From: a virus
Lineage: Duplodnaviria; Caudoviricetes
Reading direction: 5' to 3' (one strand)
Length of the DNA stretch: 64,000 bases
Virus record (IMG/VR): IMGVR_UViG_3300010944_000263
Location: 1-64,000 of that record
A program made the translations under genes and the position numbers. This document shows positions 18,487 through 61,355 of the stretch, piece after piece. The notes under the pieces are model-generated. The model ran no database searches. It was not told the origin of the DNA and saw only the letters and a list, made by a program, of their open reading frames with translations. Positions within the stretch are counted from its first letter, which is position 1. Each line of letters starts with the position of its first letter.

Positions 18487-18894
18487 CTACGAAACTTGAC
18501 CGAGCGTAATCTCGGTGCCGTCGTCATCAACACACACTTGGCTATCACGGATGATGTCCAAGACTTCCTTGGCGATGCTGACAGCTTCCTCAAGGTTGAT
18601 GCAACTCAGGATGTCAAAGATCGAGCAATCGCCATCTGGGCATCGCTTACACTCTTGAAAAAGAGCCATGATCCTTTTTCCGACCGCAAGCACTCTCGCC
18701 ATCGGAAAGCACCTAAGAAAGCTGAGCATATCCAAAATACCCATGCTAACCTTGGGGCTACTCAGTTTGACCGTCAACGCGGACGCATCGGCAAGCGGAG
18801 CGTCACAAATACCATCTGGGCAATCGTCGTGCTTACGAACAGTCTTTAGAAACACAGAAACAAGCTGAACAATCAGCAACAGAAAATTCGACAT
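18487..18894 (-). CDS. Cys-rich hypothetical protein with N-terminal hydrophobic segment
   Basis: CPDGIC and CKRCPDGDC motifs; GAGGT SD before ATG 18894. Confidence 0.6.
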   Translation of the reverse strand: MSNFLLLIVQLVSVFLKTVRKHDDCPDGICDAPLADASALTVKLSSPKVSMGILDMLSFLRCFPMARVLAVGKRIMALFQECKRCPDGDCSIFDILSCINLEEAVSIAKEVLDIIRDSQVCVDDDGTEITLGQVS

Positions 18895-18980
18895 GCTACA
18901 CCTCTGAAAAAGGGAAACCTGAGCGCGACACAGCGTCACGCTCAGAATAATACCAAAACACGCAACTGAACGAAACAATA

Positions 18981-24900: not shown

Positions 24901-27900
24901 TCTTCCATCAGACGACGCTTAATCTCCTTACCCAAGTTGAAAATCTTGACGTTTTCAGTGATAGGCTTTCCATCGTTGTCTCTTCCAACAACCCGCTTTG
25001 CAGAATCTTTATGCCCCATCTCCATGAATATCATCTGCGTGGCTTTAGGATGCGAATAGTAGTAATCCATCGCATTCACAAGCATCTTGTTGATCTTCAA
25101 CCTTGGATCGCGAGGATCCACAAGACTAGCATCTACCCCATCCATCAAGCGAGGATCAAGAGCCAGCTTCACGCCTTCGCTATTGAGAACCAAAGGCATG
25201 TACTCTCTTGTTCGAAGAAGCTCAAACTTCGCTTTGCCTGTTGCTTGCTTAAGCGTCCTGTACCGCTCCTTTAAGTTTTCGCTCATCAGCTTTTGAATCG
25301 GCATCATCTGCAGCGTTTCGTTATGCACTTCCTTGTATGGACGACCGACAACAGGCTCTCCCTCTTCAATTCTTCCATCTTTTGTTGGTCGCGGAACAAA
25401 CTCCGGCATGTCGCTCCCGAAAACCGTATCCATGTACTGTCCGATAGATGCTCGCAATTCCGGAAGGTTTACAAAGCTAGTTAGGCGCACAAACTCTTCG
25501 TACGTTCCGCCAACAGACAGTTCGTCGCTCGTTTCCGCAGTAGCAAACGTGTTGAACCATCCATCCCAATCCTTTACTCCAACTGCTTGCATTTCATCAG
25601 GCATGATGAATCGCTGCATGTTATAGATTTCATTCAAAGTGTTTGTGACTGGAGTTCCGGTAAACAAAAACACTCCCCGTCCATTTTGCGTCCCGCGAAT
25701 GTAGTCAGACAGAAGCATTAGTGAATTGCCAATGTTACTCGACTGCTTATTCAGCCCCTTTACTTGCTGACGAGTAGCAATAGGAATTTTTTTGAAAATA
25801 TGCGCCTCGTCGACCATGAGCATATCAACACCCATGTCTTCAATGAAAATAGTAGATTCGCTAGCGGAATCCGCCTGAGCTTCTCGAATGCGCTCTCGCA
25901 AACGGAGGCGTTCCTTAACAAGCTCTTTCGCGGTTCTTTGCTTGAGCTTCTTCAAATCGTCGTCGTCTATGTTGTCTAAGTTCTCTGGCATACTGCCTTT
26001 GAACGGACTGTCGTCTTCATTGAAAGCCTCAAGCGCTGCAGCTTCCAATTGATCCATTTGCTCTTGAAGAAGCTTTTCAAGCGTCTCAGGGCGCATCTTC
26101 AGCTTATCAACAAGCGAGTGTGGAATCACAATCAAATCCCAATCCTCGGTAGCGATAGAAGCCATTGCCTGACCTTTATTCTTCGAGTCGAGATTGTCAA
26201 CATAAAGAATCTTGGCTCCAGGATAGGCTTCCTGTGCTTCTCTATACACCGCTTGCGAGTTTGCATTATGCGCAAACAACACAGGCTTGTTGGCTAAGCG
26301 AAGCCGGCGAGACTCTATTGCCAAGGCTGCCATAGTAAGCGTCTTGCCTGTACCGACCTCGTGCGCGTACAGCCCTTTCCCTGAAACAATTCCACGCCAA
26401 ACAGCCGCTTCTTGGTGCTTTCGAAGCGAAAAAGGATCTTCTCCCCTCTGTAACGCAAGACCTTCAAACAGCAAAGGAACCTTTACTTTGTTCCAATCTG
26501 GAGTTGCCACAGATCGGTGATCTTCGTTGTACGCTTGAGACAGCCTTGCAATTCGGTCGGGAGTTTGCCAAATCCAATCCTTGAACTTGTCTTTCAATTC
26601 GTCAATCTTGGCGTTAGCTTCAAACGTCGCCTCTTCGTCCTTGACGTTGTTTCCTTCTGCATCTTTATAGAAAACGGAAACACGACCGTTATTCATTGCC
26701 GCAGAAACCATCTTCGAAAACGGAACTTCCATGTGTCCGTGAGTCACAACTGCTGGAGAATTGTTTACCGATCCAGCGAAGTCTACCTTCCACCCTCGAA
26801 TAGCCTTTAGCACTCTGGTGTTTTTCGGATCCTCTCCCAATAGGTCAGCAACAAACTGCGTGTAATCCTCCGCTGGAATCCAGGGAGCGCCCATGCTTAC
26901 TTGAATTTGGTTGTAAACAAGAGGCTCTGGCATGACAGATTTTGCCGCTTCGATAGATCGCTCGAGCCCATTCACGCCTTCGTTCTTCGCAGCTTCGAGC
27001 TGACGAATCTTTCTTGCCATATTCCCTGAGAGGAATACATCCGCAGCGTCATATAGGTCTTCGCCAGTCTTGTAGATCAACCCTTCTTTCTCAAGAACAG
27101 CAATCACGTCAGCTTTCGGCATCTGCGCAGACTTCGCAACAGCATCCCAGTCAATATCCACGGAGTTGTTACGAGCCAATGCGAAAGCATCGATAGGGTT
27201 CAGTTTTTCGTTTACGCGAGGTGGCTGACGAACAGTCGTCTTGGTAAAAACAGGACGCTTCTCGTACTCTCCGTTCGCTGTTTTCATCTCCAAAGACGCT
27301 ACCGCGTTAGCTATCGCATCGCCAGAAGCCTTGAGATAACCGATAGCCTTACTTTCGGTAATTGGACCGTATTTGCCTATGAACGCATCGTAAAACTGAT
27401 TGAGCTGCTTTCGCTGCTCAGCCGCATCCTCACCCCTGCCCTGCAATTCAAGCACTTGCTCAAGAGAGTCGCGAACTTTAAGAAGCGAAACCATCTCGTC
27501 ACGAATCTTTTTGACAGTCTCTGGCTTGCTCCCAGCGCGGTACCAATTGACGTACTCTTTGAGAGGCATCAACTGCTCGCCCTTGGCAATGTACAGTTCA
27601 TCACCCTGATGAATAACTGTGTTCTGCCGAAGTTTCTTTTCGTTTGCTCTCTCTCTTCCTTCGTTCGCTGTCCTTTCAGTATTCAAAATGTTTTCAGGGA
27701 CTGACTCGATCGCTTTCTGCCATCTTTCAGCCAAGTCAGAAGGCTTGTCGACAATCATGCCAGGACGACCACTCGTTGTGCCGTTACCATAGTTGATCGT
27801 CCCCAATACGTTTTCTGGGTGCAGCTTCCAGTAGTTATTCACATCTACCTTTTGCCCAGACGGTGTATCCATCTCGATAACATCAATCCACTCCTGATTA

Positions 27901-30900
27901 ACAGAAGATGGACTCTCTCCATCTTTTCGCTTACGAATGATAATCAAGTCCGCAACAACCTTCGTCTTGGCATATCGTTCAAACGCACCAGTTGGGAATC
28001 GGAACGCTGCAATCAAGTCGCCTCTATCAGACAACTGTTTTCGAAGCAGCTTAGCCTCGTCCTTGCCGTCCATCGTCATATTCGAAGTCACGAACGCCAT
28101 GATCCCACCCGGCTTTGTCTGATCGATAGCCTTGCGGAAAAAGTAGTTGTGAATCGAGTACGGCATTCGATACATTCGATCGTGAATCTTGTAGTTACCG
28201 AACGGGACGTTAGTAGCCGTTACGTCATAGAAATCATTTGGCGTCCTGCTATCCTGATACCCCTTCTGTTGAACGTTGATTTGTGGATAGAGCATCTTTG
28301 CCATGCGAGCGGTAGCTTTATCCAACTCGATAGCAGTAAAGTTAGTTCGATCCATGATGTCGCGAGGCATCATGGCTGCGAAATTACCGATACCAAACGA
28401 TGGCTCAAGGAACCTACCACCCCTGAACCCCATCCTTCTAAGCATCTCCCACATGCCTACAACAACTTCTGGATCAGTATAGTGCGCGTTGGGAATCGAC
28501 TCCTGGGCTGATCGCCACTCTTCTTCACCTAAATGTTCTCGAAGCCATTCATTCTCGGACTCCCAATCCTTCTTCACCTTCGGATTGTTCCAGTTTCCTT
28601 GGAAGAGCTCTTGTCCAAATGCACCCCACCCAATGTATGAAGCAATCGTTTCCAATTCTTCCTGAGTAGGCGCACGTCCAGACTCTTCAAGTTCTTGCGA
28701 TAGCTCCAATGCACGAACGTTCCGAGCAAACTTGTCTTTGAGACCGCGACCAAGAATGATGTCAGGGTTAGTCAGATGAAAGTTTGGACGAGATGATTTT
28801 GGAGCTAGGTCTATTCCTGCTCCATCTCCTGGCTTGGTGAATCCATCTCCTCCGGTTTCTCCGGATCCAACATCAACACCTCCCGGCACATCAGTTCCGC
28901 TTCCGACATTGCCAACTTCTCTTCCGTCACCAGTCGCATCACGTCCTGATTGAACCGACTCCGCGTTACTATCGCGTAATCCTCCAGAATCCCTTGCTCC
29001 TCCAGCCTTTTCACCATTTGCGGGCTGTTCTCCCTCCAGTGTTCCAGAAGTTGCTGCACTTCCGGATTTTTCTCGGTCAGCGTTGCTTCTGCCAGTTCTT
29101 TCTTGATCTGGCTCACCCATCTCTGTTCTAGTACCATCTGCTTTCTCTCCTAAGTAATCAATCACGCTTATTGCAGGGTCAGAAACAATTTTCTGTCTTT
29201 CAAGAGCTCTCCATCCAGCTTCCATGTACGGCGCAAACTCTCTTGCGAAGTCGCTTCCAAAGTTTTCAACAATCGCATCTACATACGCACCAAACGTGTC
29301 TTTGCCTGCACGAACGTAAAGCAAGGAAACCTGAACAATCTTTTTAAGGCTATCCCTGTCTATCGTTTCAGCAGGAATGCTTTGAAGCAAAACATCAGGA
29401 TCCGGTTTTTGAGCCTTCAAAGAACGAATATCAGAAGCAAACTGCTTCATCGCATCGTTAGCCGCCTTCAACGCAGCAGCCTTTGCTGCCGCTTCAGTAT
29501 CGATCGGCTCTTTTTTAGGTCGTTTCTTCCCTGTCAGCTTCTCTCCTAATGGTTTCTTAGCTGCTGGAGCCTTGCCGTCCTTACGTCCAGTCCTTTTCTT
29601 TGGCTTCTCTTCCGCCAGTATCTCAGCAAGGACATCATCTGCCGCATCATCCAGCGTAAGTACCCTAGTCGACTGCGATACAGGGATATCATTTAGTGGA
29701 GGATCAATTACGCTCTTGATTGCTTCTGGCAATGACTCAAAAGTCTGATTCATGTCACTGAACAAAGACGCAGTCTTTTCACCGATTCCAAGAGCTCCAA
29801 TAAGATCCTTCATCGCGTTTCGGAACTTCGTTGGCGACATCTCGTATAGAGCATGAACCAACCCCGCAGCCGAGTAATTGCGATACCCAGGACCAGCGAT
29901 CAATTGTTGCTGGTCCATGAAATAGCTCTGAAGCGAACCGCCTGCTTTTCTATCTGCAACGTATCCGTCGTATGCTTGAACGGCTTCAAGCAAGTCACTA
30001 AGCAACTGCTTGCCATGCTTCTTGTCTGCCATGCCTTTCGCTAAAGGACCAATTGCAGACAGAACCTTTTGTTTCACTGACGGCGCAGCATCTCCTAAGA
30101 CAGTCGCATCTGGAATCGCCTTCGCTGTCAATAACTGTTCTATTGCTGACTTTCCATCTGAATTCAAATCGCTCGTAACTGGATCGACATAACGGTCGGT
30201 CTGCTTAGTGGTCCACGCACCATCCTTCACCAAAGCTCGAACAATGCGATCGGCGTGCTTTGGGTTAGCCATTGCGTCACGAAGACTCAACGTGTCATCA
30301 GACGCAAGAATGCCAGCAATCAAATCAACAGTACCTTCGCTAACTCGCTTAGCTTGCGACACAGCATCCGTCGCCTGTGACTTAGAAGCTGAAAGAGCCT
30401 CGTTGAGCAACGACGAAATGGTAGTCTTGTCAAACACCTCATCTAGCACTCGAACAATAACAGGCTCTTTTAGCTTCCCAATATCCTTTTGGTCGATACC
30501 AAACTTCTCTGCCTCGGATTGTATATGCGACTTGAGTCGTGCAGCTTGCTTTCCAGAGTATGCCAACTGCATTCCCATTGAACGTGCGTTACCACCAAGA
30601 ACGGCACCGAACTCATCTAAGATAGGTGGACCATCGATAGGAGACTGCGTATCAGACGTTAACAGACTTACCTTGTCCGGAAGAACTTTCGATATTTTCT
30701 CGACAGTCTCTCGAGAGTCCGCACCTTGCTTTGGATCGTGATATGGACGTTCGTTTTCTAAAGCCCCTTCGTTCCTGGCAAAGTTGCGACGCGCGTCATG
30801 AGACGGAATTAGCTTTTCGGCTTCGATTGCGTAGTATGTTGCTTTTCGAGTCTTTCCATCCGCTGTAATAACTGCCGTGGACTTTCCTTTGACACCAAAC

Positions 30901-33900
30901 TCCGATATCGGGACTCTATCTTGTCCCACTGTTCCTGCACTTGACTGCTTTGGTTCTTGTCTTGTTTCTGACTCATCGCCTACCTCTTTCTGCTTCGCCT
31001 TAGATTCTTCTTTTTCAGCGTCAGCAAGCAGTCTTGCCAACTCTTTTTCTCGGCTAATCAAACGATCATCAACAACTCGCCCTTGAGCTGCAATTTTCTG
31101 CCTAACAGAATCGAGCATCCCTCGAATTTTTGAAACAGACATTCCATCGTCGTTCTTTTTTGCTGGTGCGTCAGAGATTTTCTCTGCTGGTTTCACTAAT
31201 TCAGCAACGGCAAAATACTTTCCTGGATCTTGCATCGCCTCTTCGAACGTGACGTTCTCTTTCTTTCCAGCGCCGCCAGCCGCATTACGCAAGTAAAACG
31301 AAACGTTGTCTCTACCAAACTCTGCACCGAGAGCGCCAAGAGCAGCAGGATTCGTAAAGTGCCCAGAAACTTGACGAGGCTTGTATTGCTTCGACTTCTC
31401 GACGACCGAACGCAACAGGCTCCTGCCTGATCCCTTTTTGGCTCCCTTCTGCGCAGCAAACATGTCGATGTATATTTGCGACGTATCGCCATCGAAACGC
31501 AACGTCGCTTCAGCCTTACCTACTCCTGTGCTCTCAACCTTCAATCCATACGTGTCGCTGTCGTACTGAACCCAATCAGACTTGTTTTTGGCGACAGGCT
31601 CTACTTCTTGACCTCCGCGATCTGGAACTGAACTAGCAACAGGCTTTGCCTCTTTCTTGGGTTTCATCTTGACCATCTGGTCGGCAGTTTGCGTAACCAT
31701 TCGAGCTCCAATGACAAGCTCGTACGTTCCGTCTGAACGCTTTTTGGTGATTTTCGCCTTCTTCTCATCTGACCATGGAACGCCAACTTCTTCGCCAACT
31801 TCAAACGTAGCGTCTGGAGCTTGCAATGTGCTTTTAGGAACAGTGCGATACTTGGTGTCACCATCCAGGGAAACAACCACATTGTCGCCATCAAGGACCT
31901 TGAAGATTGAACCTACGCTGTCTTCTAACTTTTCTCCTGATGCTGTCGTTTGAGCGGGAACGAACACTCGTTCGTCTCGCTTCCATTGCTTCGCAGAAGC
32001 AGGAACGATTTCTGGCTTCTGTTCCGACGAGTACTTGCTCGCTAGCTTGTTCAAATTCTCAAGACCGACCTTCTTGTCCGTCTCGAAATCTCCGGTCATA
32101 CCTGCGCTGATTGACCGCAAGTCCTCAACTGATCGAACAACACCACGCTCTTGCCCCTTGAGAGCCAATTGCTCGAACAACGGAGGCTTAGCCATCTTCT
32201 TGAGGCTTCCGCTTTGCAGATCATTCCAAATCTTGTCGTACATTCCATCGACAACTCCAGCCCCAGCAGACTGCATCGATTTGGAAATCTCTTCGGAAGG
32301 CATAGCTTGAGACGCAGCAGGTGGAGTTGTACCACCTTGCTGCTCTGTTGCTTGCCTTGCTTTGAGGCGTGCCTTTACTTCTTCTTCGAACCGCAGCCTT
32401 TTCGCTTCATCGATTTGTCCATCGCCTTGCCCGACTTGGGTTTCGACTGGCTGCTCTTGCTGCCCTTGTGACTCGCTTTGTTGTCGTACGCCATTATCAA
32501 CTCCTTCAGTAGTGATGGGCTGTTGCCCAGGAATTGGCGGCACAGTACCGCCTTGTGTTGTCTGACCTGCAACCGCCGCTCGGCTTTGCTCCCAGGCTTG
32601 TACACGCTCAGCTTCTTCTGGCGCTCGCTTAAACAACGCACGGTCGCCAAGAACGATTTCAGCCCACTTGTGAGCACTTGGTCGAGTCTCGAGCGATGCA
32701 ATGCGAGACATCTGCTCTGGCGTCAACGGAGGCTGACCAGGAATCGCAGGAGGTTGCACCGGGGGAGCCGTGGGTGGTTGTGACGGAGCAGGAGGTTGTA
32801 TCGGCGTAGGAGGAGCCGCGGCAGGCATCGGAGGAGGAGATGGCTGAACGGGAGCAACGGGAGGCATTCGAGATGCTTCCTCGGGAGTTTTTGACAGCGT
32901 GTCAGCACTTTGTTCACTGGGAATTTGTTGGTTTCCAGTGAAATCACTATACGCCGATTGCGCAGCTTCGCCTGTCCCAAACAGACCGCCAACGACCGCT
33001 CCTTGGGCGCCAGCCTCAGCCCACTTCATAAAGTTCTCTTTGGTGAGAATCTTCGCTTTGGGATCGTTTATTCTCGCATTCACATCGCCAAGGAACTCTT
33101 GGAATCCTTCCTGAACTCCTTCTTCGCCGGCATTTCTCACCGCGTCCCACAAATAGCCAGCAGCCATTCGAGGACCAGACTTACGAGCCACTTCCGCAGC
33201 AGCCGTTTTGCCAATGAACATTCGCAAACCGGACGGAACAGCACCCAACGCAGCTTCGGAAACACCGGAAATCTGACCGAGCGCCAACGCACTCACTGGA
33301 TTGTCGATTCCCTTTTCCTTCTGTTCACCCCACATGCCACCGCCTTCATGCAGCGCCGTGGTTTGCGAGACAGCAACACCAGCACCAACCTTTTTAGCGA
33401 CAGTGTTCCTGACAGACTGCTCAGCCATTTGCTCAGCAGCTTCTTTCGCAATCCCTTTCTTGATGTACTGCTCAGCGACTTCACCGATGGCTTTTTTGAT
33501 AGCCGCCTTGCTGAACATACCAGCGATCGCACCAATTGGAGCCGTAACAACGTCTCCAGGATCCGGACCAGGAACCAGCATTGCACCCGCAGCAGCACCA
33601 GCAGCACCGCTGATTGCAGATTCAGCCAATGACGGAGCCGCAGCACCAAGAGCACCAGCAGCCCACTTGCCCATGTTGCCAGCGCTGCCAAATGCACCAG
33701 ATTTAGGGTCTGCAGAAAAAAACTTGTCCACCGTAGCAGGATTCTCAGACGCTTGACGCATCTCCTGCTCGTATTTCTTAAATCGATAACTAGCCTCTAC
33801 GGGATCTCCGATGGCAGACTGCCCAAGACCAATTGCGCCTTGCAAAGTCCCCTGCATCGAATCAATCCCTCGCGACAACCCTCGCATGAACTCATTGCGA

Positions 33901-34016
33901 CCCGAGGTATTATCTGCAGCCTTTGCCTTAGCCTCTCTTTCTCGCCTTGCCTTGGCAAGCATGACAGACAATTCGTAAGCATCAAGCTGTTCGGATTCGC
34001 TCTGACCATCTGCCAT
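18981..34016 (-). CDS. Giant (5011 aa) DarB-like polyvalent virion/ejection protein: GNAT-like, ddrB-ParB-like, N6-adenine MTase, SF2 helicase and HExxH metallopeptidase domains
   Basis: FLEPSFGIG (~28.4 kb) and TNVPFG (~28.2 kb); AHEVGTGKT (~26.35 kb), DEAH (~25.8 kb), TGTP, EQRNGRGFRQGN; FIHEIAH (~22.93 kb); LIPSHD (~30.8 kb). Confidence 0.9.
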   Translation of the reverse strand: MADGQSESEQLDAYELSVMLAKARREREAKAKAADNTSGRNEFMRGLSRGIDSMQGTLQGAIGLGQSAIGDPVEASYRFKKYEQEMRQASENPATVDKFFSADPKSGAFGSAGNMGKWAAGALGAAAPSLAESAISGAAGAAAGAMLVPGPDPGDVVTAPIGAIAGMFSKAAIKKAIGEVAEQYIKKGIAKEAAEQMAEQSVRNTVAKKVGAGVAVSQTTALHEGGGMWGEQKEKGIDNPVSALALGQISGVSEAALGAVPSGLRMFIGKTAAAEVARKSGPRMAAGYLWDAVRNAGEEGVQEGFQEFLGDVNARINDPKAKILTKENFMKWAEAGAQGAVVGGLFGTGEAAQSAYSDFTGNQQIPSEQSADTLSKTPEEASRMPPVAPVQPSPPPMPAAAPPTPIQPPAPSQPPTAPPVQPPAIPGQPPLTPEQMSRIASLETRPSAHKWAEIVLGDRALFKRAPEEAERVQAWEQSRAAVAGQTTQGGTVPPIPGQQPITTEGVDNGVRQQSESQGQQEQPVETQVGQGDGQIDEAKRLRFEEEVKARLKARQATEQQGGTTPPAASQAMPSEEISKSMQSAGAGVVDGMYDKIWNDLQSGSLKKMAKPPLFEQLALKGQERGVVRSVEDLRSISAGMTGDFETDKKVGLENLNKLASKYSSEQKPEIVPASAKQWKRDERVFVPAQTTASGEKLEDSVGSIFKVLDGDNVVVSLDGDTKYRTVPKSTLQAPDATFEVGEEVGVPWSDEKKAKITKKRSDGTYELVIGARMVTQTADQMVKMKPKKEAKPVASSVPDRGGQEVEPVAKNKSDWVQYDSDTYGLKVESTGVGKAEATLRFDGDTSQIYIDMFAAQKGAKKGSGRSLLRSVVEKSKQYKPRQVSGHFTNPAALGALGAEFGRDNVSFYLRNAAGGAGKKENVTFEEAMQDPGKYFAVAELVKPAEKISDAPAKKNDDGMSVSKIRGMLDSVRQKIAAQGRVVDDRLISREKELARLLADAEKEESKAKQKEVGDESETRQEPKQSSAGTVGQDRVPISEFGVKGKSTAVITADGKTRKATYYAIEAEKLIPSHDARRNFARNEGALENERPYHDPKQGADSRETVEKISKVLPDKVSLLTSDTQSPIDGPPILDEFGAVLGGNARSMGMQLAYSGKQAARLKSHIQSEAEKFGIDQKDIGKLKEPVIVRVLDEVFDKTTISSLLNEALSASKSQATDAVSQAKRVSEGTVDLIAGILASDDTLSLRDAMANPKHADRIVRALVKDGAWTTKQTDRYVDPVTSDLNSDGKSAIEQLLTAKAIPDATVLGDAAPSVKQKVLSAIGPLAKGMADKKHGKQLLSDLLEAVQAYDGYVADRKAGGSLQSYFMDQQQLIAGPGYRNYSAAGLVHALYEMSPTKFRNAMKDLIGALGIGEKTASLFSDMNQTFESLPEAIKSVIDPPLNDIPVSQSTRVLTLDDAADDVLAEILAEEKPKKRTGRKDGKAPAAKKPLGEKLTGKKRPKKEPIDTEAAAKAAALKAANDAMKQFASDIRSLKAQKPDPDVLLQSIPAETIDRDSLKKIVQVSLLYVRAGKDTFGAYVDAIVENFGSDFAREFAPYMEAGWRALERQKIVSDPAISVIDYLGEKADGTRTEMGEPDQERTGRSNADREKSGSAATSGTLEGEQPANGEKAGGARDSGGLRDSNAESVQSGRDATGDGREVGNVGSGTDVPGGVDVGSGETGGDGFTKPGDGAGIDLAPKSSRPNFHLTNPDIILGRGLKDKFARNVRALELSQELEESGRAPTQEELETIASYIGWGAFGQELFQGNWNNPKVKKDWESENEWLREHLGEEEWRSAQESIPNAHYTDPEVVVGMWEMLRRMGFRGGRFLEPSFGIGNFAAMMPRDIMDRTNFTAIELDKATARMAKMLYPQINVQQKGYQDSRTPNDFYDVTATNVPFGNYKIHDRMYRMPYSIHNYFFRKAIDQTKPGGIMAFVTSNMTMDGKDEAKLLRKQLSDRGDLIAAFRFPTGAFERYAKTKVVADLIIIRKRKDGESPSSVNQEWIDVIEMDTPSGQKVDVNNYWKLHPENVLGTINYGNGTTSGRPGMIVDKPSDLAERWQKAIESVPENILNTERTANEGRERANEKKLRQNTVIHQGDELYIAKGEQLMPLKEYVNWYRAGSKPETVKKIRDEMVSLLKVRDSLEQVLELQGRGEDAAEQRKQLNQFYDAFIGKYGPITESKAIGYLKASGDAIANAVASLEMKTANGEYEKRPVFTKTTVRQPPRVNEKLNPIDAFALARNNSVDIDWDAVAKSAQMPKADVIAVLEKEGLIYKTGEDLYDAADVFLSGNMARKIRQLEAAKNEGVNGLERSIEAAKSVMPEPLVYNQIQVSMGAPWIPAEDYTQFVADLLGEDPKNTRVLKAIRGWKVDFAGSVNNSPAVVTHGHMEVPFSKMVSAAMNNGRVSVFYKDAEGNNVKDEEATFEANAKIDELKDKFKDWIWQTPDRIARLSQAYNEDHRSVATPDWNKVKVPLLFEGLALQRGEDPFSLRKHQEAAVWRGIVSGKGLYAHEVGTGKTLTMAALAIESRRLRLANKPVLFAHNANSQAVYREAQEAYPGAKILYVDNLDSKNKGQAMASIATEDWDLIVIPHSLVDKLKMRPETLEKLLQEQMDQLEAAALEAFNEDDSPFKGSMPENLDNIDDDDLKKLKQRTAKELVKERLRLRERIREAQADSASESTIFIEDMGVDMLMVDEAHIFKKIPIATRQQVKGLNKQSSNIGNSLMLLSDYIRGTQNGRGVFLFTGTPVTNTLNEIYNMQRFIMPDEMQAVGVKDWDGWFNTFATAETSDELSVGGTYEEFVRLTSFVNLPELRASIGQYMDTVFGSDMPEFVPRPTKDGRIEEGEPVVGRPYKEVHNETLQMMPIQKLMSENLKERYRTLKQATGKAKFELLRTREYMPLVLNSEGVKLALDPRLMDGVDASLVDPRDPRLKINKMLVNAMDYYYSHPKATQMIFMEMGHKDSAKRVVGRDNDGKPITENVKIFNLGKEIKRRLMEEGVPESEIALFSNMNKEQRAEAARAMNRGEIRFAIGGTETLGTGVNAQENLVAMHHLDAPWMPGALEQRNGRGFRQGNRWNTVHEHRYLTEGPQDGRRWQVLLTKDRFINRFMHHKGDERIIDMSDVDMDEEGEGDFEATFSAAVGDPRIQQRFRLEREIVKLKEAKDRHYRTIQDSLWEAHKQKTGDIPRLTREIDDLSAIQKAYQDSRPQKSESGKSVEPTMVLSDLIKVADKNISGAEAITDALEMIVERYGRTQSTEDRVKASDKRKVAEYRGVSIFISGGQLHAEKMLLEINPSFASMDGVLRNVGKRIDARKAEKAKKESFVKSADESAKLPFVRQQQLDAKVAKLKALVAELESNPEGSSFWFRNIAPIGTSIFVKKRKRPAVPQAMADMQAELYRERVTGEESSDGAKFELEEHAVSGYRSDTHVLYEDGVDTVAVRADKVLDEQGEPIFKNLEELRSFHKNPDLGNKLSDLPADLAQMESGDVDSTIEKQAIDIAMAAMDANINSFDKLVAYSVKSLGERRTREIGPYLRLVAQIAGFAGVRSTSDVLGTPGVTREQVFSMARAAFPSSSLSDEQINAALDIMERVGLSFDKVGFAPFGSPVPKKLEEMALQGGGDYIKGWTSFISATRAIIGATDKADVSTFIHEIAHPLRRFLLNRRVPQSERAGITDSEIIALEKEIGVENGVWKVENEEKFAKMWEQYWFEGIDPPSSGLKGLFQKIARWMQGVYRNIQQITGGPLPSEVRALFDKLVQRSGDIESADSLSKNDDFVTSIKNEVVNELRFRRGVPGLVDVASETQEEWLEAAETMLRNDPMLGDRLVKEINQKARNLSNIEVAVMQLHYRQVTNQLIKASDRLIKAKDNGDSLASAQALTDTDIIQNALAEIEEAAKAAGREWGRAGVARQIELAKDFSSVALIRKARVANAGNALNEEQLAKIRELAARVAELEGDLAKANQEKLDLERQRNVDAQIEDSKKKGGRIPEAIRKKAVDKLTSFKNKFASVFALSSADDTGSLYATEDEMMASEAKSVVQAYVDLGVFSLGEFLANIRKDLGAELPVSVRAAFATAWKELSENGDIPVPAMDKGDTRGLSRLAKQIERSLVEAGITERDDVLQGVWESLQEIDPEISKRETMDALSGYGQYSPPSDNEYDKIIADINAQLLQLSKLQDMEAGIAPAKTGFGRQEPSNELRDLIREVNQEKRNGKYRVTDENTQLKTAIGAAKTALRNRIYDLDRAVNVTKQPIAGSQKRDLAGKDTELDNLRKKRNELMADYKAMFPKPEATMDQRIAATNRVLDRVIADLEKQLRTGEFNAKKQAQPISTPELDAKRARIEALRAQRDSLVGVRKRTPEQIEKAYKANLLKQIADYKERIAKSEFDPKPRKEVRILSQEELDLKRELADVKDQFYRMASDYRLANMSPRERAWDYIKETAHLSRALMTSIDASAVFRQGGTVAFGHPMMAKAVAKDMYRAMLSKSSEFKTAEEIRKDDLYQFAITAGLQITEEEGKITKQEEAYMGRWARDGIGAQGTWLNDKSKIALWPVAASARGYMTFLNGIRFQLFKHLIANLGRGGQVTADEAKVIAMYINAATGRSDLGPMMRWAEQMNMVFFAPRFVASRFQYLGLPLWLLGSRKVSGRVKKAIALEYARHAAGVMSFLGLTVALGRLLGGDDEEEKPTVSLDLRSSDLLKLKFGETRIDPMSGLSQVIVLASRIATGKRVRDDGTVVSLRGEDEQYASSGVPGVVGNFLRSKLAPIPGAVFDIAAEENVVGQTMTPYSSIVNLFFPLSIREIRETAESRGIPQGALITLLSLHGMGASTYGPESKYRTATPEKRKELFEKDLKRMKFDSPDPQYKEYLTREQLTQISRRREEKQQSLVYAASTVPNRKAAKSVESFNQSVSEQKAAIESLKRSGITLTEARRLLIKHWESTYGSAKEMRGGVPVYKAALSDRLQQLRKVFSR
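22581..22593. repeat. Core palindrome TGACA-GGC-TGTCA inside the giant gene
   Basis: Identical 13-bp core to the copies at ~14.19, 38.38 and 47.06 kb. Confidence 0.7.
28811..29137 (-). CDS. Overprinted 108-aa helical protein (+1 frame) inside the giant gene
   Basis: TTAGGAGAGAAAGCAG-ATG strong SD; folded-looking sequence lying over a low-complexity linker of the host frame. Confidence 0.65.
   Translation of the reverse strand: MVLEQRWVSQIKKELAEATLTEKNPEVQQLLEHWRENSPQMVKRLEEQGILEDYAIVTRSRFNQDVMRLVTEEKLAMSEAELMCREVLMLDPEKPEEMDSPSQEMEQE
30809..30976 (-). CDS. Possible overprinted 55-aa ORF (+1 frame)
   Basis: GAGGTAGGCG-ATG; MSQKQDKNQSSQVQEQWDKIESRYRSL... Confidence 0.3.
   Translation of the reverse strand: MSQKQDKNQSSQVQEQWDKIESRYRSLVSKESPRQLLQRMERLEKQHTTQSKPKS
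32375..32494 (-). CDS. Overprinted 39-aa basic peptide (+1 frame)
   Basis: GAAGGAGTTGATA-ATG; MAYDNKASHKGSKSSQSKPKSGKAMDKSMKRKGCGSKKK. Confidence 0.5.
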   Translation of the reverse strand: MAYDNKASHKGSKSSQSKPKSGKAMDKSMKRKGCGSKKK

Positions 34017-34037: not shown

Positions 34038-35996
34038 TTATTGTTTAACAGGCTTCCAAGCGTCTCTTTTTTCGTCAGCCATTCTGTCCTGGAATCCGCC
34101 AGTAATGCTACTTTCGAAATTCTTCTGCAGCTTGTCAGTGTACTTCCTGGCTAAGATTTGATTATAGACATATTCCTCGGCATCGCTGCGGGACATTTTC
34201 CCTTTCATCGCAACGTGCGAAATCACCTCATCCATGGTCGGCATTTTCTGGAAGGCTCGAACGCTCGCTCTGGAGTCAAACATACCCATTTCGTCCCAGA
34301 GAGTATTCAGCACGCCTTGCTCTATTTGTGGACCACCAGTTGATTTCCTAGAAGGCTTCTTACCTACAGCCGCCTCTCGAATTTCTTCGTACATTTTCTT
34401 GGAGGTCTTTCCACTGCCAGAGACTATCGCCGAAACGTAATCTTGGTCGTCAATTTCTCCGAGCTCTCGCTTGACTCGAAGCTCAGCCAATATATCGGCA
34501 GCTTCAGTAACCATTCCCGACTTGGCTTTCTTTCTGGCAACGCCTACAAGCTCTGTAGGCGGTATAGACATTTCTAATAAATCAAGAACTTTGATGGCAT
34601 CAGGATTGTTCGCAGAAGCCTCTGCCAGTAAAGCAGAAACATTCTCTCTTGCCCCCATCTTCTTTCTTATTTCGGTCTTCTGCTCTTGAGTGCCTGATTC
34701 GAACGTTTTCAACGCTTCTCCAATAATTCCAGCAATTAGAGGCCGCGTCTGCTGTGGCTGAGCCACAACTGCTGACGAATTGCCAGCAGCAAGCGGCTGC
34801 GCAGCTGGCACCGCAGAAGCGGCGACGCCCTGAGGAACTCCGGCCGAAACCATGCCAGCTCTGTCTGTCGGCATCGTCGCAGGAGGAGTCACCGGAGCCT
34901 GAGCCTGACCTTGCGGGAAGCCGTTTTCTACCAATGCTTCGCGTCCAAGCTGCGACATCGCCATCATCTCGGTATCTGGGAACGTATCCAAGACATTGCC
35001 AACGGTCTGCATAACCGCTGGAGATACTGTTCTTGCAGGAGGAGCCACCGGAGCCCCCTGAGGCGCCCCAGGAGCGGCAAGCTGAGCTCCTTGAGCCATA
35101 GGCGAACCAGCCTTAGGAAACATGCTATCTTGGAGATTATAGTCTTGCATAACCATCTCCATAGCAGCTTTCTTCATAGCCTCCCTGGATTCAAAAAACG
35201 GCATCTCACCAGAATCTACAAGATCTTGCAGTTCTGATTCTTTTGCCGCGACAGCGCTCGCAAACTCCTTTCGGTTAGCATCGTAATACGCCTGCGCTGG
35301 TGTCAACTGAGGCTGGTTAGCGGCTTCTGTCATCCACTCCTTTCCAGTCCTGACGTCCTTAACAACGAACTGAGTGCCATCAGGGTACTTCGATGGATCT
35401 ACATACCCTCCGCCACTTGGAAGACGATGCACCAAGTTTTCGTTTTCACGCTCGTACAAAGGCTTCACAGGAGGTATTTGCTCAAGAGCACTGGACACTC
35501 TTTCGTAGTACGGATTCGCAAATTCCACAGCCTGCGGTTCATCAAAAGCTTTTCCCCGAATTGCAGCAGCTCCTCCAACCAACCGAAGCAACTCCTGCCT
35601 TACGGGAGCAGGAAGATCTTCACGTGACAATGCGTTTTGCGCCATCTTGGTCGTCATGTCGATCCGAGAATCAAAACCAGCCTGCTGCCTCTCTCGCTCC
35701 ATATTCTGGAGACCAAACTCGCGAGCCTCTTTAGCTTGCTTTGCTCGAAAGTCTTGGTCTTGCTCTTGCCTCATCCTTGACAAAAGATCGTTCTTGAAGT
35801 CTCGATCTTCTTGCCAAGCATTTTGCATCTGCTGCTTTTGCATGTCGAACGCGCGGTCCTGCATGGCATTCATCTGATCCATGTCGTACTTGCGCTGCTG
35901 CTGGACGAGCTGTTGCCCATACTTTCGCCGCTCAGAGCCGCCCGAAGCCAAATTAGCGCCGAGTGCGGCAACGTCGTGTCTTAGTCGTATTGCCAT
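34038..35996 (-). CDS. Putative internal virion/ejection protein
   Basis: 652 aa, Q/A/P-rich with coiled-coils; directly upstream of the giant gene. Confidence 0.65.
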   Translation of the reverse strand: MAIRLRHDVAALGANLASGGSERRKYGQQLVQQQRKYDMDQMNAMQDRAFDMQKQQMQNAWQEDRDFKNDLLSRMRQEQDQDFRAKQAKEAREFGLQNMERERQQAGFDSRIDMTTKMAQNALSREDLPAPVRQELLRLVGGAAAIRGKAFDEPQAVEFANPYYERVSSALEQIPPVKPLYERENENLVHRLPSGGGYVDPSKYPDGTQFVVKDVRTGKEWMTEAANQPQLTPAQAYYDANRKEFASAVAAKESELQDLVDSGEMPFFESREAMKKAAMEMVMQDYNLQDSMFPKAGSPMAQGAQLAAPGAPQGAPVAPPARTVSPAVMQTVGNVLDTFPDTEMMAMSQLGREALVENGFPQGQAQAPVTPPATMPTDRAGMVSAGVPQGVAASAVPAAQPLAAGNSSAVVAQPQQTRPLIAGIIGEALKTFESGTQEQKTEIRKKMGARENVSALLAEASANNPDAIKVLDLLEMSIPPTELVGVARKKAKSGMVTEAADILAELRVKRELGEIDDQDYVSAIVSGSGKTSKKMYEEIREAAVGKKPSRKSTGGPQIEQGVLNTLWDEMGMFDSRASVRAFQKMPTMDEVISHVAMKGKMSRSDAEEYVYNQILARKYTDKLQKNFESSITGGFQDRMADEKRDAWKPVKQ

Positions 35997-36064: not shown

Positions 36065-36430
36065 CTACATCGCGTACTCAAAAACAAACCTTTCCGCTGA
36101 CCAAACTTCTTTTTCGAGCCTATGCGAAACTTCATTGTGCGCCTTAAACGTCCACCAAAAAAATTTCTCTCGGCTTGAAAAATCTGGAGGGTTGTCTCGC
36201 TTAAACCTAAGCCAATGATTCCAGCAGGCGCTACATGGAACACTAACAGACTCCCACTCAACAAACCACGATTCAATTCTACTCCAATCTTCGACAACCC
36301 AGGCAGAACGATGTAAAGTTTCCCACCCAGGAATCATGCCTCCAGGAGTGCGTATCAACCCACTGCCTCTCCACCCAGGAGGAGGAGGGTACTCTAAGAA
36401 AGGGTTATTGACCAATCTTCTGTCCACCAA
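36065..36430 (-). CDS. Erv1/Alr-family FAD-dependent sulfhydryl oxidase
   Basis: WETLH...PCSACWNHW...PPDFSSREKFFWWTFKAHNEVSHRLEK matches the Erv signature WxxxH / PCxxCxxH / HNxVNxRLxK; start uncertain. Confidence 0.8.
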   Translation of the reverse strand: MVDRRLVNNPFLEYPPPPGWRGSGLIRTPGGMIPGWETLHRSAWVVEDWSRIESWFVEWESVSVPCSACWNHWLRFKRDNPPDFSSREKFFWWTFKAHNEVSHRLEKEVWSAERFVFEYAM

Positions 36431-37635
36431 TTCATAACGACATTGCTGCCATACTCATAGCTAGTGGGAACATCCTGTGTTACTGTCGTGACCGTAGTGA
36501 TACTCTCAAAATCCGGATCAGACGGAGTAAGGACATTTACGGTTCCGCTTGTTGGAAATGCTGTTCCAGAAGGAACTCCATCTGGACACCGAGGGTAAGG
36601 GTAAGGCCAAAACCCACCGAGGATCGATCCCGTCAAGCATCCCGAAGGCGTCTGAAACTTGACGGCCGGAGAAAGGCCGGATGGGAAGACATGCGTCCCA
36701 ACCAAACTGCACTGATTACCGTCTAAATAAATAGTTCTTTCTGCAAACTCAATATTACAATTCGCCATCTGAAAAAGAGTTTGCCAAAAGTTGATCGTTG
36801 TGCCGGCGCTGCAGTCAAAGCAATTGTCCGCCCCGACTGCTGTCAAATAAGCTGGCTCCGCTGGAGGCGTAGCCGACCCGAATTGCCAAAAATCTATATC
36901 CGCCCCAGTTGATTTGAGTCCGCAAGTTCCAAGATCAGATCGAAATCCGGTGAACGTACTGTTGCCAACAATCGTATTTCTCCTGCGATAATACGGACGA
37001 TCTTGATCCCCAAGATCAAAGACATAAGAAGAAAACCTAGCAATGTCCTTGTACCAAACCTTTGCAGTCAAAGCAATTTTAGGCACGCCTTCAATTTCTA
37101 CCCAGCACGCTTTAAGGTAAACGCCAATCAAAAAACGCTGAGCTACATACGATCTTTTATCTACCATTCCCTCGTAAATAGTCGTAGTCGGCCCAACTAT
37201 GTCAGACTGAGAACCTTTGCAAAGAGCGCTTGCTCTCCAATGAAAAGTAGGCTGCGAAACTGTTGTCACTCCGTCAGTGTAACGATAGTGATAATAAACA
37301 GGCGTAGACGAAACCAAAGAAGGAGCCATGGCAGCAGCAGCCCAACAGCACGTAGGCTCATTGATCGTCGAAAGAATAGTTCGCGCCGCCGGAGACAAAT
37401 AGTCTGGGCTAGGTATTGGAGGCCAACGGCACGAAGCATTGTTTGAGTTTATAGGAGGCGTAATATCGTACCCAGCCGTAGTAAAGCCAGAAGTGACGTA
37501 ATTAACTACCGGACGAATCTGACCACCAATAAAAGACACAGGATGCAAACCGTCTGGTGAAGAAAAATCAAGAGTAGAGATTGCCGGATCAGGCAACCTG
37601 CAACAACCGCCGCAGCAACAATTCCACCATGTCAT
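36394..37635 (-). CDS. Cys-rich beta-structured tail/receptor-binding candidate
   Basis: 413 aa with 17 Cys, N-terminus MTWWNCCCGGCC; lies in the tail module. Confidence 0.6.
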   Translation of the reverse strand: MTWWNCCCGGCCRLPDPAISTLDFSSPDGLHPVSFIGGQIRPVVNYVTSGFTTAGYDITPPINSNNASCRWPPIPSPDYLSPAARTILSTINEPTCCWAAAAMAPSLVSSTPVYYHYRYTDGVTTVSQPTFHWRASALCKGSQSDIVGPTTTIYEGMVDKRSYVAQRFLIGVYLKACWVEIEGVPKIALTAKVWYKDIARFSSYVFDLGDQDRPYYRRRNTIVGNSTFTGFRSDLGTCGLKSTGADIDFWQFGSATPPAEPAYLTAVGADNCFDCSAGTTINFWQTLFQMANCNIEFAERTIYLDGNQCSLVGTHVFPSGLSPAVKFQTPSGCLTGSILGGFWPYPYPRCPDGVPSGTAFPTSGTVNVLTPSDPDFESITTVTTVTQDVPTSYEYGSNVVMNWWTEDWSITLS

Positions 37636-37643
37636 AACTGCCT

Positions 37644-38360
37644 CTACATTGCTGGTATTTCGTCAGGGTCGCATTTTGCTTGAATTATGTAGTACTTACC
37701 ACCTTGGTAATAAACCAAACCTTTTGTGCCAGCAAGCATACCTTCGAAAATCCGATCAGGATCGTATATGGTTTCATTCGCAACAAAACTTCCGTCCATT
37801 TCTTTGACGATAGCTTCCGCAGTGCCTTCATCCCAATCTTCGAACGAGTGAAAACGAAAAAGCCCTTCAGAACCAGCGTGAATGAATATCCAATTTACAG
37901 CCACGCCGTTATGGTCAAACAACAATTCAATAGAGGAAGAAAGGTCAATTGGATGACCAGCATTCGAGTCTCCATCCACAACGCCTGGGTTCTGACCAAC
38001 CCTCCAATTCACTGACGAAGGCGAAGGAGGAGTGTAAACAGCAGTGCCCTGGATTGGCAAGAAAGCAGGATACACCTCACCTATGCTATATTTGCCTGCA
38101 GTTCTGCACCCAAATGGCTTAGCAACCGATATTCCAGGTTTATTCCTGTCTCCAGATTCGTAATCGACAAAACGAAGAATCCTTGTGTCAAATCCCCTGC
38201 AAATAACATAGTCATCGTATTCGTCATCTGCCGCTATCTGCATCATCGCGCAGTACGGCAAGATACCTTCGATGCCAAGCGATGCAAACCCACCATCAAC
38301 CGGATTAAACGGAGGCGGAATCTTGAAATTTGGTGTTGGTCGCCGCCGCTTTCGGAACAT
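37644..38360 (-). CDS. Hypothetical tail-region protein
   Basis: 238-aa ORF in the structural operon. Confidence 0.6.
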   Translation of the reverse strand: MFRKRRRPTPNFKIPPPFNPVDGGFASLGIEGILPYCAMMQIAADDEYDDYVICRGFDTRILRFVDYESGDRNKPGISVAKPFGCRTAGKYSIGEVYPAFLPIQGTAVYTPPSPSSVNWRVGQNPGVVDGDSNAGHPIDLSSSIELLFDHNGVAVNWIFIHAGSEGLFRFHSFEDWDEGTAEAIVKEMDGSFVANETIYDPDRIFEGMLAGTKGLVYYQGGKYYIIQAKCDPDEIPAM

Positions 38361-38434: not shown

Positions 38435-38464
38435 GCCGTTTGGAACATGGTACTTCCAAACGGC
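38435..38464. promoter_or_regulatory. Perfect 11-bp hairpin upstream of the HNH gene
   Basis: GCCGTTTGGAA-CATGGTAC-TTCCAAACGGC. Confidence 0.6.
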
Positions 38465-38497
38465 CCTAACCACCATGGACCTAAGAAGGAGGCTCAA

Positions 38498-39343
38498 ATG
38501 GCTAAAAACGATTCTACAGCAGCTCGTCCCCGCGTCAAAGACATCTCTGGACAGCAATTTCACGACCTGACCGCAATTAGCTATGCCGGCACAAACCTCG
38601 GAAGCCAAGCAGGAGCATACTGGACATTTCGATGCGTATGCGGAACTGAAAAAATACTGAACGGTCGTGCTGTACGATCTGGGTCTACCAAATCGTGCGG
38701 CTGCAGCAAGCATCGCACAAATGAAGTCGGAAACACTTACTTCAAGCTGACGGTCATCGAGTTCGCTGGCAAATCTAAAGGCGGAGACTCTCGTTGGCTT
38801 TGCAGGTGCGAGTGCGGAAACACAACCGTCGTTGACAGGGCAGCATTTCGAAAAGGAAGCATAAAGTCTTGCGGATGCCACAGAGCCCGAGCAGGAGGTA
38901 GATGCGAAACTTCCGAGTACACTTCCTGGAAGGAAATGAAAAGACGATGCGACCCAGACTACAAAGACAAGCACCTGTACGCCGAAAGAGGAATCACGAT
39001 TTGCGAAAAATGGGCTAACAGCTTCAACGCTTTTTTTGAAGACATAGGACCAAAACCATTTCCAGAAGCCACAGTAGATCGAATCAATAACGACCTCGGA
39101 TACTTTCCCGAAAACTGCCGATGGGCGACAAAGCTCGAGCAAAGCCAAAACACTCGCAAAGCACGCATGTTGACGTTCAATGGCGAAACTCTTTGTTTGC
39201 GAGAATGGGCAAGACGACTTGGAATTACGCACGCAACTCTGGCAAGTCGCATCAATAAAGGATGGGAACCGGAGAAGATATTTTCTAGCGAACACTATTT
39301 CTCTCCTCCTCCTAGAAAAACCAAGAAGAATAAGCAGGACTAA
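38498..39343 (+). CDS. Free-standing HNH homing endonuclease with duplicated N-terminal domain, antisense to the late operon
   Basis: Two (F)xxLT...WxxRCxCG...KSCGC modules; TVDRINNDLGYFPENCRWAT; AAGGAGG SD. Confidence 0.88.
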   Translation: MAKNDSTAARPRVKDISGQQFHDLTAISYAGTNLGSQAGAYWTFRCVCGTEKILNGRAVRSGSTKSCGCSKHRTNEVGNTYFKLTVIEFAGKSKGGDSRWLCRCECGNTTVVDRAAFRKGSIKSCGCHRARAGGRCETSEYTSWKEMKRRCDPDYKDKHLYAERGITICEKWANSFNAFFEDIGPKPFPEATVDRINNDLGYFPENCRWATKLEQSQNTRKARMLTFNGETLCLREWARRLGITHATLASRINKGWEPEKIFSSEHYFSPPPRKTKKNKQD

Positions 39344-61039: not shown

Positions 61040-61355
61040 CAGAGTACCCTCCCTCATTATCAACCAATCCCCTCATCGAAAGGAATTCCTTACGTGCTCG
61101 GCGGCTTGTAAAACGAATCTGACCGCTATCCAACACAGCGGCGCCTTGAATTCTGTGTTTTTCAATCAACTGCCGTGTTTCGCCAACCTGAGCTCGCATC
61201 ACGCCGCATCCTTCCGAAATAAGCGGATTGTGCTCGGTGTACGTGTTCGCAGCCATAGAAGGCGACTCGAGCCAATCAGCCTTTCGAGGCATCAGCTTGT
61301 CGAGCTCTTCGGAAGTAACGACCTTACCTTTGTACTTGTGAACAACTCCTGCCAT
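61032..61355 (-). CDS. Hypothetical protein
   Basis: 107 aa between portal and HNH. Confidence 0.65.
   Translation of the reverse strand: MAGVVHKYKGKVVTSEELDKLMPRKADWLESPSMAANTYTEHNPLISEGCGVMRAQVGETRQLIEKHRIQGAAVLDSGQIRFTSRRARKEFLSMRGLVDNEGGYSDG

Follow-up and report, generated by a model that had tools for sequence, protein, structure and literature searches.

An Erv-family sulfhydryl oxidase gene overlapping the gene of a cysteine-rich late protein: a candidate oxidative-folding cassette in tailed phages

Introduction

Two small proteins of eukaryotic viruses, pB119L of African swine fever virus (ASFV; structure 3GWL) and E10R of vaccinia virus, form disulfides in virion proteins within a reducing cytoplasm. 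Both are sulfhydryl oxidases of the Erv family, and Erv pathways encoded by viruses are regarded as a hallmark of the large DNA viruses of eukaryotes. The cytoplasm of bacteria is reducing as well, and phage virion proteins are taken to fold without catalysed disulfides. Here we describe an Erv-family gene in a tailed phage, where it overlaps the gene for a cysteine-rich late protein (the partner), and we propose that the phage enzyme has the same role as pB119L and E10R. The DNA that we analysed (the window) is bases 1-64000 of the 72,979-bp IMG/VR virus record IMGVR_UViG_3300010944_000263, whose completeness is 100% by CheckV.

The phage protein (the window Erv) resembles pB119L and E10R in being a viral, single-domain Erv of about 100-120 amino acids with only the active-site CxxC, no export signal, and late expression as suggested by its operon. 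Its best match in both sequence and structure is pB119L (E = 3e-8 for the window Erv alone and 2e-22 for a profile of its clade), and E10R is presumably also among the compact enzymes of nucleocytoplasmic large DNA viruses (NCLDVs) that are most like it. In contrast to these two systems, the host is bacterial, the virus is a tailed phage, and the Erv gene appears to be coupled to one cognate substrate gene. The phage clade also has the sequence PPD[F/L] after helix 3, which pB119L, ALR, and Erv1 lack in our alignments. No counterpart of the relay formed by A2.5L and G4L in poxviruses or by pA151R in ASFV is established for the window phage.

Other described systems are less similar. The cellular enzymes (Erv1, Erv2, human ALR, Arabidopsis Erv1, and the Erv domain of QSOX) share the fold, the flavin-site motifs, and the CxxC motif, and the clade profile matches them at E = 1e-20 to 7e-17; however, the window Erv is smaller than these proteins and lacks a shuttle tail, a Mia40-type or thioredoxin-domain partner, and organelle targeting. 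Baculovirus P33/Ac92 and mimivirus R596 (matched at E = 6e-7) are also viral members of the Erv family, but they are larger, have extra domains, and are more distant than pB119L. Finally, lambda Tfa and T4 gp38 and gp57A are tail-fibre assembly chaperones whose genes lie just after the fibre genes. Like the window Erv, they are encoded directly downstream of the protein that they are thought to mature. Their folds are unrelated to Erv, and the help proposed from Erv would be covalent (disulfides) rather than steric.

The role of pB119L/E10R-type enzymes in virion disulfide formation is also described in PMC10598087. That paper notes that Pfam records the Erv family in a small number of bacterial groups, one of them Pirellula, and treats the origin of the family as eukaryotic and NCLDV. 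A literature search that covered few subscription journals returned no publication that describes a bacteriophage Erv enzyme, and PHROGs has no family for either Erv or the partner. With tblastn against 50,697 GenBank phage records, we found no phage with Erv or the partner; the sole match was a giant-virus record that is filed there. Virus-encoded disulfide formation by Erv is a known kind of system, and the comparisons below support its presence in tailed phages, as a two-gene cassette.

Results

A compact Erv/ALR-family domain with intact motifs

The two genes and the active site lie at these positions of the window:

36065..36430, minus strand: Erv/ALR-family sulfhydryl oxidase gene (116-121 amino acids; Erv domain at residues 30-121; residues 1-29 disordered)
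36224..36235, minus strand: active-site codons C66-S-A-C69 (the only two cysteines of the Erv protein, at the N-terminus of helix 3)
36394..37635, minus strand: cysteine-rich partner (413 amino acids, 17 cysteines or 4.1%, beta-rich; N-terminal CCCGGCC and conserved C-terminal NWWTExWxIT)

The open reading frame (ORF) at 36065-36430 is a compact Erv/ALR-family domain with an intact CxxC and intact flavin-site motifs. The initial annotation, made from the sequence alone, had noted an Erv signature here. Indeed, the ORF matches the Pfam profile Evr1_Alr (PF04777) at 37.9 bits (E = 2.4e-9, profile positions 4-88 of 93), which is above the curated cut-off of 27.6 bits, and a six-frame search of the whole record found the same domain at 37.7 bits. 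The motifs are W36-x-x-L39-H40, P65-C66-S-A-C69-x-x-H72, and H98-N99-x-V101...R-L-x-K; in the window copy, the second asparagine of HNxVN is a serine. We take the W-x-x-L-H columns (in helix 1) and the H-N-x-V-N-x-x-L-x-K columns (in helix 4) to be FAD (flavin adenine dinucleotide) contacts.

Structure prediction, which had been proposed as a check, gave a confident Erv fold. The AlphaFold2 model, with 116 relatives as input, has a predicted local distance difference test score (pLDDT) above 90 over residues 30-121. Its five helices (36-45, 49-63, 67-79, 87-104, and 112-119) match a four-helix bundle plus a short fifth helix. When we compared the model to the PDB with Foldseek, the top 25 or so rows were all Erv-family enzymes, with a probability of 1.00, and the best superposition was to pB119L (3gwl; root-mean-square deviation 2.3 Å over 91 residues, 28% identity). 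A search with the single sequence also placed 3gwl first, with Erv/ALR enzymes of plants, yeast, and mammals next. The profile of the 116 relatives aligns end to end with every solved Erv domain, with pB119L at one extreme and Erv2 (E = 7e-17) at the other. Its GxxWxxLH, PCxxC, and HNxVNxxLGK columns line up with the solved enzymes, and the PCxxC of the window Erv is in register with that of pB119L, Arabidopsis Erv1, and ALR.

A full scan of 1.84 billion representatives found 546 protein clusters that match the Erv ORF at E ≤ 0.001; four of these are close (46-51% identity). The view that Erv oxidases are eukaryotic and NCLDV proteins only is too strict, given these clusters and the bacterial groups in PMC10598087. 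Across the 116 relatives that we sampled, which belong to a clade with PPD[F/L] as its own signature, C69 is invariant and C66 nearly so, while W36, L39, H40, H98, N99, and V101 are invariant or nearly so. The active site is CxxC in 83 relatives and CxC in the other 33. We infer that the window Erv binds FAD and has oxidase activity.

The window Erv has no signal peptide, membrane segment, or other hydrophobic segment (its maximum 19-residue hydropathy is 0.46). It also has no distal shuttle disulfide on a flexible tail, as it holds just two cysteines, and the same is true of 26 of the 116 relatives. Such a disulfide is a feature of cellular Ervs and not of every viral Erv.

Overlap of the Erv and partner genes

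We compared the window to related loci from phage contigs and prophages, which we label with L-numbers; L016 is an 85%-related copy of the locus. The candidate starts for Erv are TTG at 36430 (giving 121 amino acids), GTG at 36427, and TTG at 36415, and the ORFs overlap by 37 nucleotides (36394..36430, minus strand), at the 3' end of the partner and the 5' end of Erv. A gene caller instead placed the start at TTG 36358, downstream of a Shine-Dalgarno-like GGAGAGG, which would give a protein of 97 amino acids. We rejected this start because the 36 nucleotides upstream of it, up to the partner's stop codon, evolve as coding sequence: the window and L016 differ at 9 of these positions, of which 7 are synonymous third positions in the Erv frame, and the remaining 2 change an arginine to a lysine. 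This pattern implies that the N-terminal extension is translated and that the overlap, which the initial annotation had reported with the same 413-amino-acid, 17-cysteine ORF, is real. Judging from these codon differences, the true start of Erv is at 36415-36430, so that it overlaps the last codons of the partner by 22-37 nucleotides.

The same junction overlaps by 22-37 nucleotides in L002, L003, L007, L013, and L015. The more distant loci L022 and L026 have 4-nucleotide overlaps, and in L024 a single nucleotide is shared. These arrangements suggest that the two genes are translationally coupled.

The disordered N-terminal extension of Erv (36358-36430, minus strand) contains the motif PPPxGWxGS, which is conserved in L016, L002, L013, and L015 and is encoded partly inside the overlap with the partner gene. 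This could be a docking peptide.

Conserved cysteines of the partner

The partner ORF begins with MTWWNCCCGGCC and has no match in Pfam or PHROGs. We found 10 homologs, with identities down to 13-15% and 13-21 cysteines per member. Just 11 columns are invariant across all 11 members, and 6 of these are cysteines (69, 96, 97, 238, 272, and 309; hypergeometric p = 8e-7). Among the 8 closer members, 13 of the 51 invariant columns are cysteines (p = 6e-10). Across this alignment, then, the cysteines are the partner's most conserved feature. Most of them are isolated and widely spaced in the sequence. Between the window and L016, the partner has 194 synonymous and 60 amino-acid-changing codon differences, which implies strong purifying selection.

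The AlphaFold2 model of the partner is all-beta, with a mean pLDDT of 67, and the N-terminal cysteine cluster is disordered (pLDDT 27-41). Foldseek against the PDB found nothing similar at E ≤ 0.001, and in a wide VIA-align search the best Z was 6.4, which is within the stated noise. One row from BFVD (E = 3.8e-4) was dismissed because the TM score was 0.08-0.14. Like Erv, the partner has no signal peptide and no hydrophobic or membrane segment (maximum 19-residue hydropathy 1.06). We also predicted a complex of the partner, residues 25-121 of Erv, and FAD; its score of 0.00 counts neither way.

Pairing across unrelated phage backbones

Scans of IMG/VR with the single proteins found no close relative of Erv or of the partner; the IMG/VR relatives were found by a pattern scan from a 5-sequence alignment. 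The partner gene lies next to the Erv gene, in most cases overlapping it, in the window, L016/L017, L002/L009/L010/L012, L003, L007/L011, L013/L014, and L015, which amounts to at least six divergent lineages of phages or prophages. The gene orders that end in the pair are as follows (sizes in amino acids, TMP being the tape-measure protein):

L002/L009/L010/L012 (Pirellula prophages): TMP 752, then 277, 106, 396 (partner), Erv
L003: TMP 693, then 284, 245, 398 (partner), Erv
L007/L011: gene order as in L003
L016/L017: 240, then 413 (partner), Erv 98

L013/L014 and L015 were found by searching with the partner, and in these loci the overlapping downstream gene encodes a protein of 377 or 342 amino acids with an N-terminal Erv-like domain. 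These domains match the Erv clade profile with hhalign probabilities of 95.8% (L013) and 97.9% (L015), and have a CxC active site. In pairwise comparisons, the tail genes that flank the pair in the window, L013, and L003 are not similar. Because the pairing is kept while the identity of the partner falls to 13-15% and the flanks differ, the two genes appear to travel together across unrelated backbones.

Three more distant relatives of Erv lie in unrelated phage-like contigs, and there Erv abuts or overlaps (by 1-4 nucleotides) the most cysteine-rich gene of the locus:

L022: upstream protein of 336 amino acids, 21 cysteines
L024/L025: upstream protein of 312 amino acids, 16 cysteines
L026: upstream protein of 523 amino acids, 27 cysteines

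These upstream proteins are 5-6% cysteine, as compared to about 1% for their neighbours, and they are unrelated to the partner family (hhalign probability of about 1% or less). In every Erv context that is long enough to read, a cysteine-rich gene lies directly upstream, whether or not it is homologous to the partner. Homologs without such a link, which would have spoken against the pairing proposed in the initial annotation, were not seen in these contexts.

A prophage from the Pirellulaceae that is related to the window phage in its head and tail genes (G266) provides a comparison. Although it has capsid and tail genes in common with the window, it has no match to Erv or to the partner, and its structural proteins are all at most 1.7% cysteine. 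In G266, an HNH gene and then a cysteine-free gene of 526 amino acids come after a homolog of the window's 664-amino-acid gene. In the window, the interval between the matching positions is occupied by three genes: the partner, Erv, and

37644..38360, minus strand: gene of 238 amino acids, directly upstream of the partner (no family match; synteny with L030)

Because non-homologous cysteine-rich proteins also precede Erv, and because the G266 prophage lacks both genes, the link between Erv and cysteine-rich genes is, on this comparative evidence, functional and not merely historical. The 238-amino-acid gene may or may not belong to the cassette: a 240-amino-acid homolog precedes the pair in L016, and the upstream genes of L013 and L003 are not similar to it.

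Among 301 Pirellulaceae genomes, 4 have the Erv domain, with only 2 scoring above the cut-off; the 14 control genomes lack it. Given this rarity, the phage gene is not a borrowed housekeeping gene of the host.

Several other arrangements of the family were seen. A single bacterial genome (UViG_2687453341 in IMG/VR) has three prophage regions (L009, L010, and L011), each with a partner-Erv pair, and these represent two lineages. The proteins of L013 (9251-10384) and L015 (9212-10240) have a C-terminal extension of about 230-260 amino acids, which belongs to no family, after the Erv-like domain, and their CxC appears as NCDCG and KCGCG. Another member of the same clade is found in a different context: in L008 (541-1452), the first gene of an operon of glycosyltransferase-like genes (GT9, capsule synthesis, and GT7C) encodes a 303-amino-acid protein that has two Erv domains.

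Position of the pair in the late operon

The window's genes are mostly on the minus strand, in a single long late operon, and the pair sits within it. In relatives, the tape-measure gene and then 2-3 small genes precede the pair, and in small siphovirus-like loci the partner is the last and largest gene after the tape-measure and distal tail genes. We think that the partner is probably a tail-tip or adhesin protein of the virion, because of its position after tail genes and because it moves between backbones in the manner of receptor-binding modules. The description of the partner as a tail gene in the initial annotation agrees with the order of genes in the relatives; the window itself shows a late operon, where a role in the tail is suggested by position.

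Two large proteins encoded after the pair in this operon are free of cysteine: the 5011-amino-acid protein (18981-34016, minus strand) and a 652-amino-acid protein directly downstream of Erv (34038-35996, minus strand) have 0 cysteines in 5663 residues. The chance of this is about 7e-38 at the phage's mean cysteine content of 1.5%, or about 5e-13 at 0.5%. The matching genes of L016 (527 and at least 409 amino acids) and all of the tape-measure proteins of the related loci are cysteine-free too. In a cell with a phage oxidase, thiols may be selected against in proteins that have to be ejected or to remain unfolded.

Candidate relay and other cysteine-rich ORFs

A thioredoxin-like CxxC domain at about 16.7 kb had been noted as a possible part of the system. 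A CSWC motif does exist there, in a segment of about 85 amino acids (16624-16887, minus strand) that forms the C-terminal end of an ORF for a papain-family peptidase (Peptidase_C1; 16621-17769, minus strand). The segment has no sequence match in Pfam or the PDB, and its feature similarity of 0.91 to thioredoxin clusters, from a language model, is a weak lead. No CSWC or thioredoxin-like gene lies beside the pair in the relatives. We did not adopt this segment as a relay because the evidence comprises a motif and one weak lead and because it lies outside the conserved unit. A Peptidase_C1 gene is also found 2 kb downstream of Erv in L026 (8490-9368), an otherwise unrelated phage contig that carries Erv; the peptidase might act in lysis or in the maturation of virions.

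Similarly, the late ORF at 18487-18978, which had been listed as cysteine-rich, does have 11 cysteines in 163 amino acids, but it also has hydrophobic segments, and its product is probably membrane-bound or exported. If so, host periplasmic systems could serve it.

The phage and its host

Other features of the window are:

18981-34016, minus strand: polyvalent protein of 5011 amino acids
in the window: portal-like gene
in the window: Mtd_N-type fibre gene, separate from the partner gene
in the window: gene of 417 amino acids, weakly tail-like
in the window: papain-family peptidase, integrase, and homing HNH genes

The closest relatives of the Erv and partner genes are in prophages of Pirellula sp. 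SH-Sr6A (CP011272.1) and Pirellulaceae bacterium SH501, and the putative capsid and tail genes have copies of 31-39% identity in two other Pirellulaceae genomes. The host is therefore probably a member of the Pirellulaceae (Planctomycetota). Contigs that are nearly identical to the record are found in wastewater metagenomes.

One HNH homing endonuclease gene (38447-39343, plus strand; phrog_374 at E = 2.5e-71) is on the opposite strand and splits the late operon between the 664- and 238-amino-acid genes; the HNH-like gene of G266 is at the matching position. A superfamily 2 helicase of 923 amino acids (9362-12133, minus strand) contains an intein (Intein_splicing, E = 7e-12, residues 160-531). 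Between the portal and scaffold-like genes is a 290-amino-acid HNH or zinc-ribbon protein (60191-61063, minus strand) with 22 cysteines (7.6%), whose cysteine richness is due to metal-binding motifs and not to the Erv system.

Discussion

We propose that the two genes form an oxidative-folding cassette, in which the Erv oxidase makes disulfides, within the cytoplasm, in the cysteine-rich late protein whose gene overlaps its own. We estimate the probability of this reading at roughly two in three. A minimal FAD-dependent Erv and its 413-amino-acid substrate would be made from the same message. Erv would then oxidise the partner as it is synthesised or when it has just folded, within the reducing cytoplasm of the bacterium and ahead of its incorporation into the virion, with electrons passing from pairs of cysteines in the partner to the CxxC of Erv, to the flavin, and on to O2, yielding H2O2. 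The partner would gain about six structural disulfides, and possibly inter-subunit links via its N-terminal cysteine cluster. Stapling by disulfides would benefit a tail-tip or adhesin protein, which acts outside the cell. More speculatively, the disordered N-terminal cysteine cluster of the partner might reach the active site of Erv directly and so replace the shuttle.

As neither protein has a hydrophobic segment, both should remain in the cytoplasm, which is where the phage assembles. The central idea of the initial annotation, that a phage Erv is tied to its cysteine-rich neighbour and works in the cytoplasm as in NCLDVs, is supported, at the level of sequence, by the family and fold, by the conserved pairing, and by the lack of export signals. 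The roles of the partner as substrate and as virion component are inferred, and so are the disulfides between its cysteines.

Several observations weigh against this proposal. Its support comes from comparative genomics and predicted structures. The window Erv lacks a second, shuttle disulfide; cellular Ervs need one for efficient oxidation of proteins, and the enzymes of poxviruses and ASFV work through adaptor proteins. In L013, L015, and more than a quarter of the sampled relatives (33/116), CxC replaces CxxC at the active site. Erv diverges faster than the partner (66% versus 85% identity to L016). The partner's model is of moderate quality (pLDDT 67) and matches no known fold. Finally, the location of the partner in the virion or tail rests on gene order, and the window phage also has the separate Mtd_N-type fibre gene.

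Alternatively, an active Erv might target the host cell or its general thiol pool (thioredoxin or low-molecular-weight thiols), and so affect host redox functions, defences, or lysis, with the cysteine-rich neighbour being incidental. The absence of a recognisable substrate-docking or shuttle module in Erv would fit with this, and H2O2 itself might be useful to the phage. However, a junction with a cysteine-rich gene, usually overlapping, is kept across otherwise unrelated backbones and with non-homologous cysteine-rich proteins, and Erv lies in late structural operons instead of early regions for host takeover. We consider this explanation improbable.

There is also a small chance that the Erv-fold protein is a non-catalytic assembly chaperone of the upstream protein, as tail-fibre assembly proteins are. 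The slot right after a putative fibre or tip gene is the classical position for a chaperone, the conserved, disordered PPPxGWxGS peptide resembles a docking motif, and the spacing of the active site varies (CxC in L013, L015, and the 33 relatives mentioned above). But at least one active-site cysteine is invariant in the 116 relatives and the second is nearly so, and the tryptophan, histidine, HN, and valine of the flavin site are nearly invariant, which would not be expected for a scaffold. Furthermore, all of the upstream partners are cysteine-rich.

The cysteines of the partner might instead bind metal (zinc or an iron-sulfur cluster, as in some phage tail-tip proteins), with Erv handling the clusters or protecting the thiols, but we find this very unlikely. 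The N-terminal CCCGGCC and the CxxC at C272/C275 do look like metal sites, and the distant members L003, L007, and L011 start with a CxxC...CxxC-like spacing. Yet most of the conserved cysteines are single and far apart (69, 96/97, 139, 177, 238, 293, 309, and 333), without paired CxxC or histidine patterns, and C275 is lost in distant members of the family. We know of no Erv enzyme that handles the metal sites of a substrate.

It is equally hard to believe that the pair is an accessory "moron" cassette, placed where the tail operon ends, whose product is not in the virion, such as a cell-surface or superinfection-exclusion factor. In favour of this, no further transcription unit follows the pair in prophages before oppositely oriented genes or the integrase are reached, and a related prophage lacks it. 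However, export signals are absent from both proteins, the late operon around the pair is co-directional and continues with more late genes in the window, L016, L022, and L026, and in the small siphovirus-like loci the partner is the sole gene that is large enough to encode a tail-tip or receptor-binding protein.

Returning to the proposal of an oxidative-folding cassette, we can also imagine a broader form of it, to which we would give somewhat less than an even chance. The cassette may be a mobile and self-contained unit in tailed phages of Planctomycetes and other bacteria, in which a minimal Erv of the PPD[F/L] clade, itself a large clade of prokaryotic viruses with CxxC or CxC active sites, is translationally coupled to whichever cysteine-rich tail or adhesin protein it matures, and the cysteine cluster of the substrate may act as the shuttle.

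The proposal is testable, as the carriers include Pirellula sp. SH-Sr6A, which is listed as an isolate and whose chromosome is complete (CP011272.1). A very small oxidase together with its natural cognate substrate could also be of use in biotechnology, for making disulfide-containing proteins in the bacterial cytoplasm. If the broader form is true, this would be the first enzyme-catalysed formation of structural disulfides by a phage in the cytoplasm of a mesophilic bacterium. A conserved cassette of Erv plus substrate in phages would extend the NCLDV-type strategy to bacteriophages, and it would reveal a large and uncharacterised clade of Erv proteins, including variants with a CxC active site. 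Such a cassette bears on the origin of the "core" Erv gene of the NCLDVs; in the broader form, phages would be a candidate reservoir for the Erv genes of NCLDVs, or the reverse.

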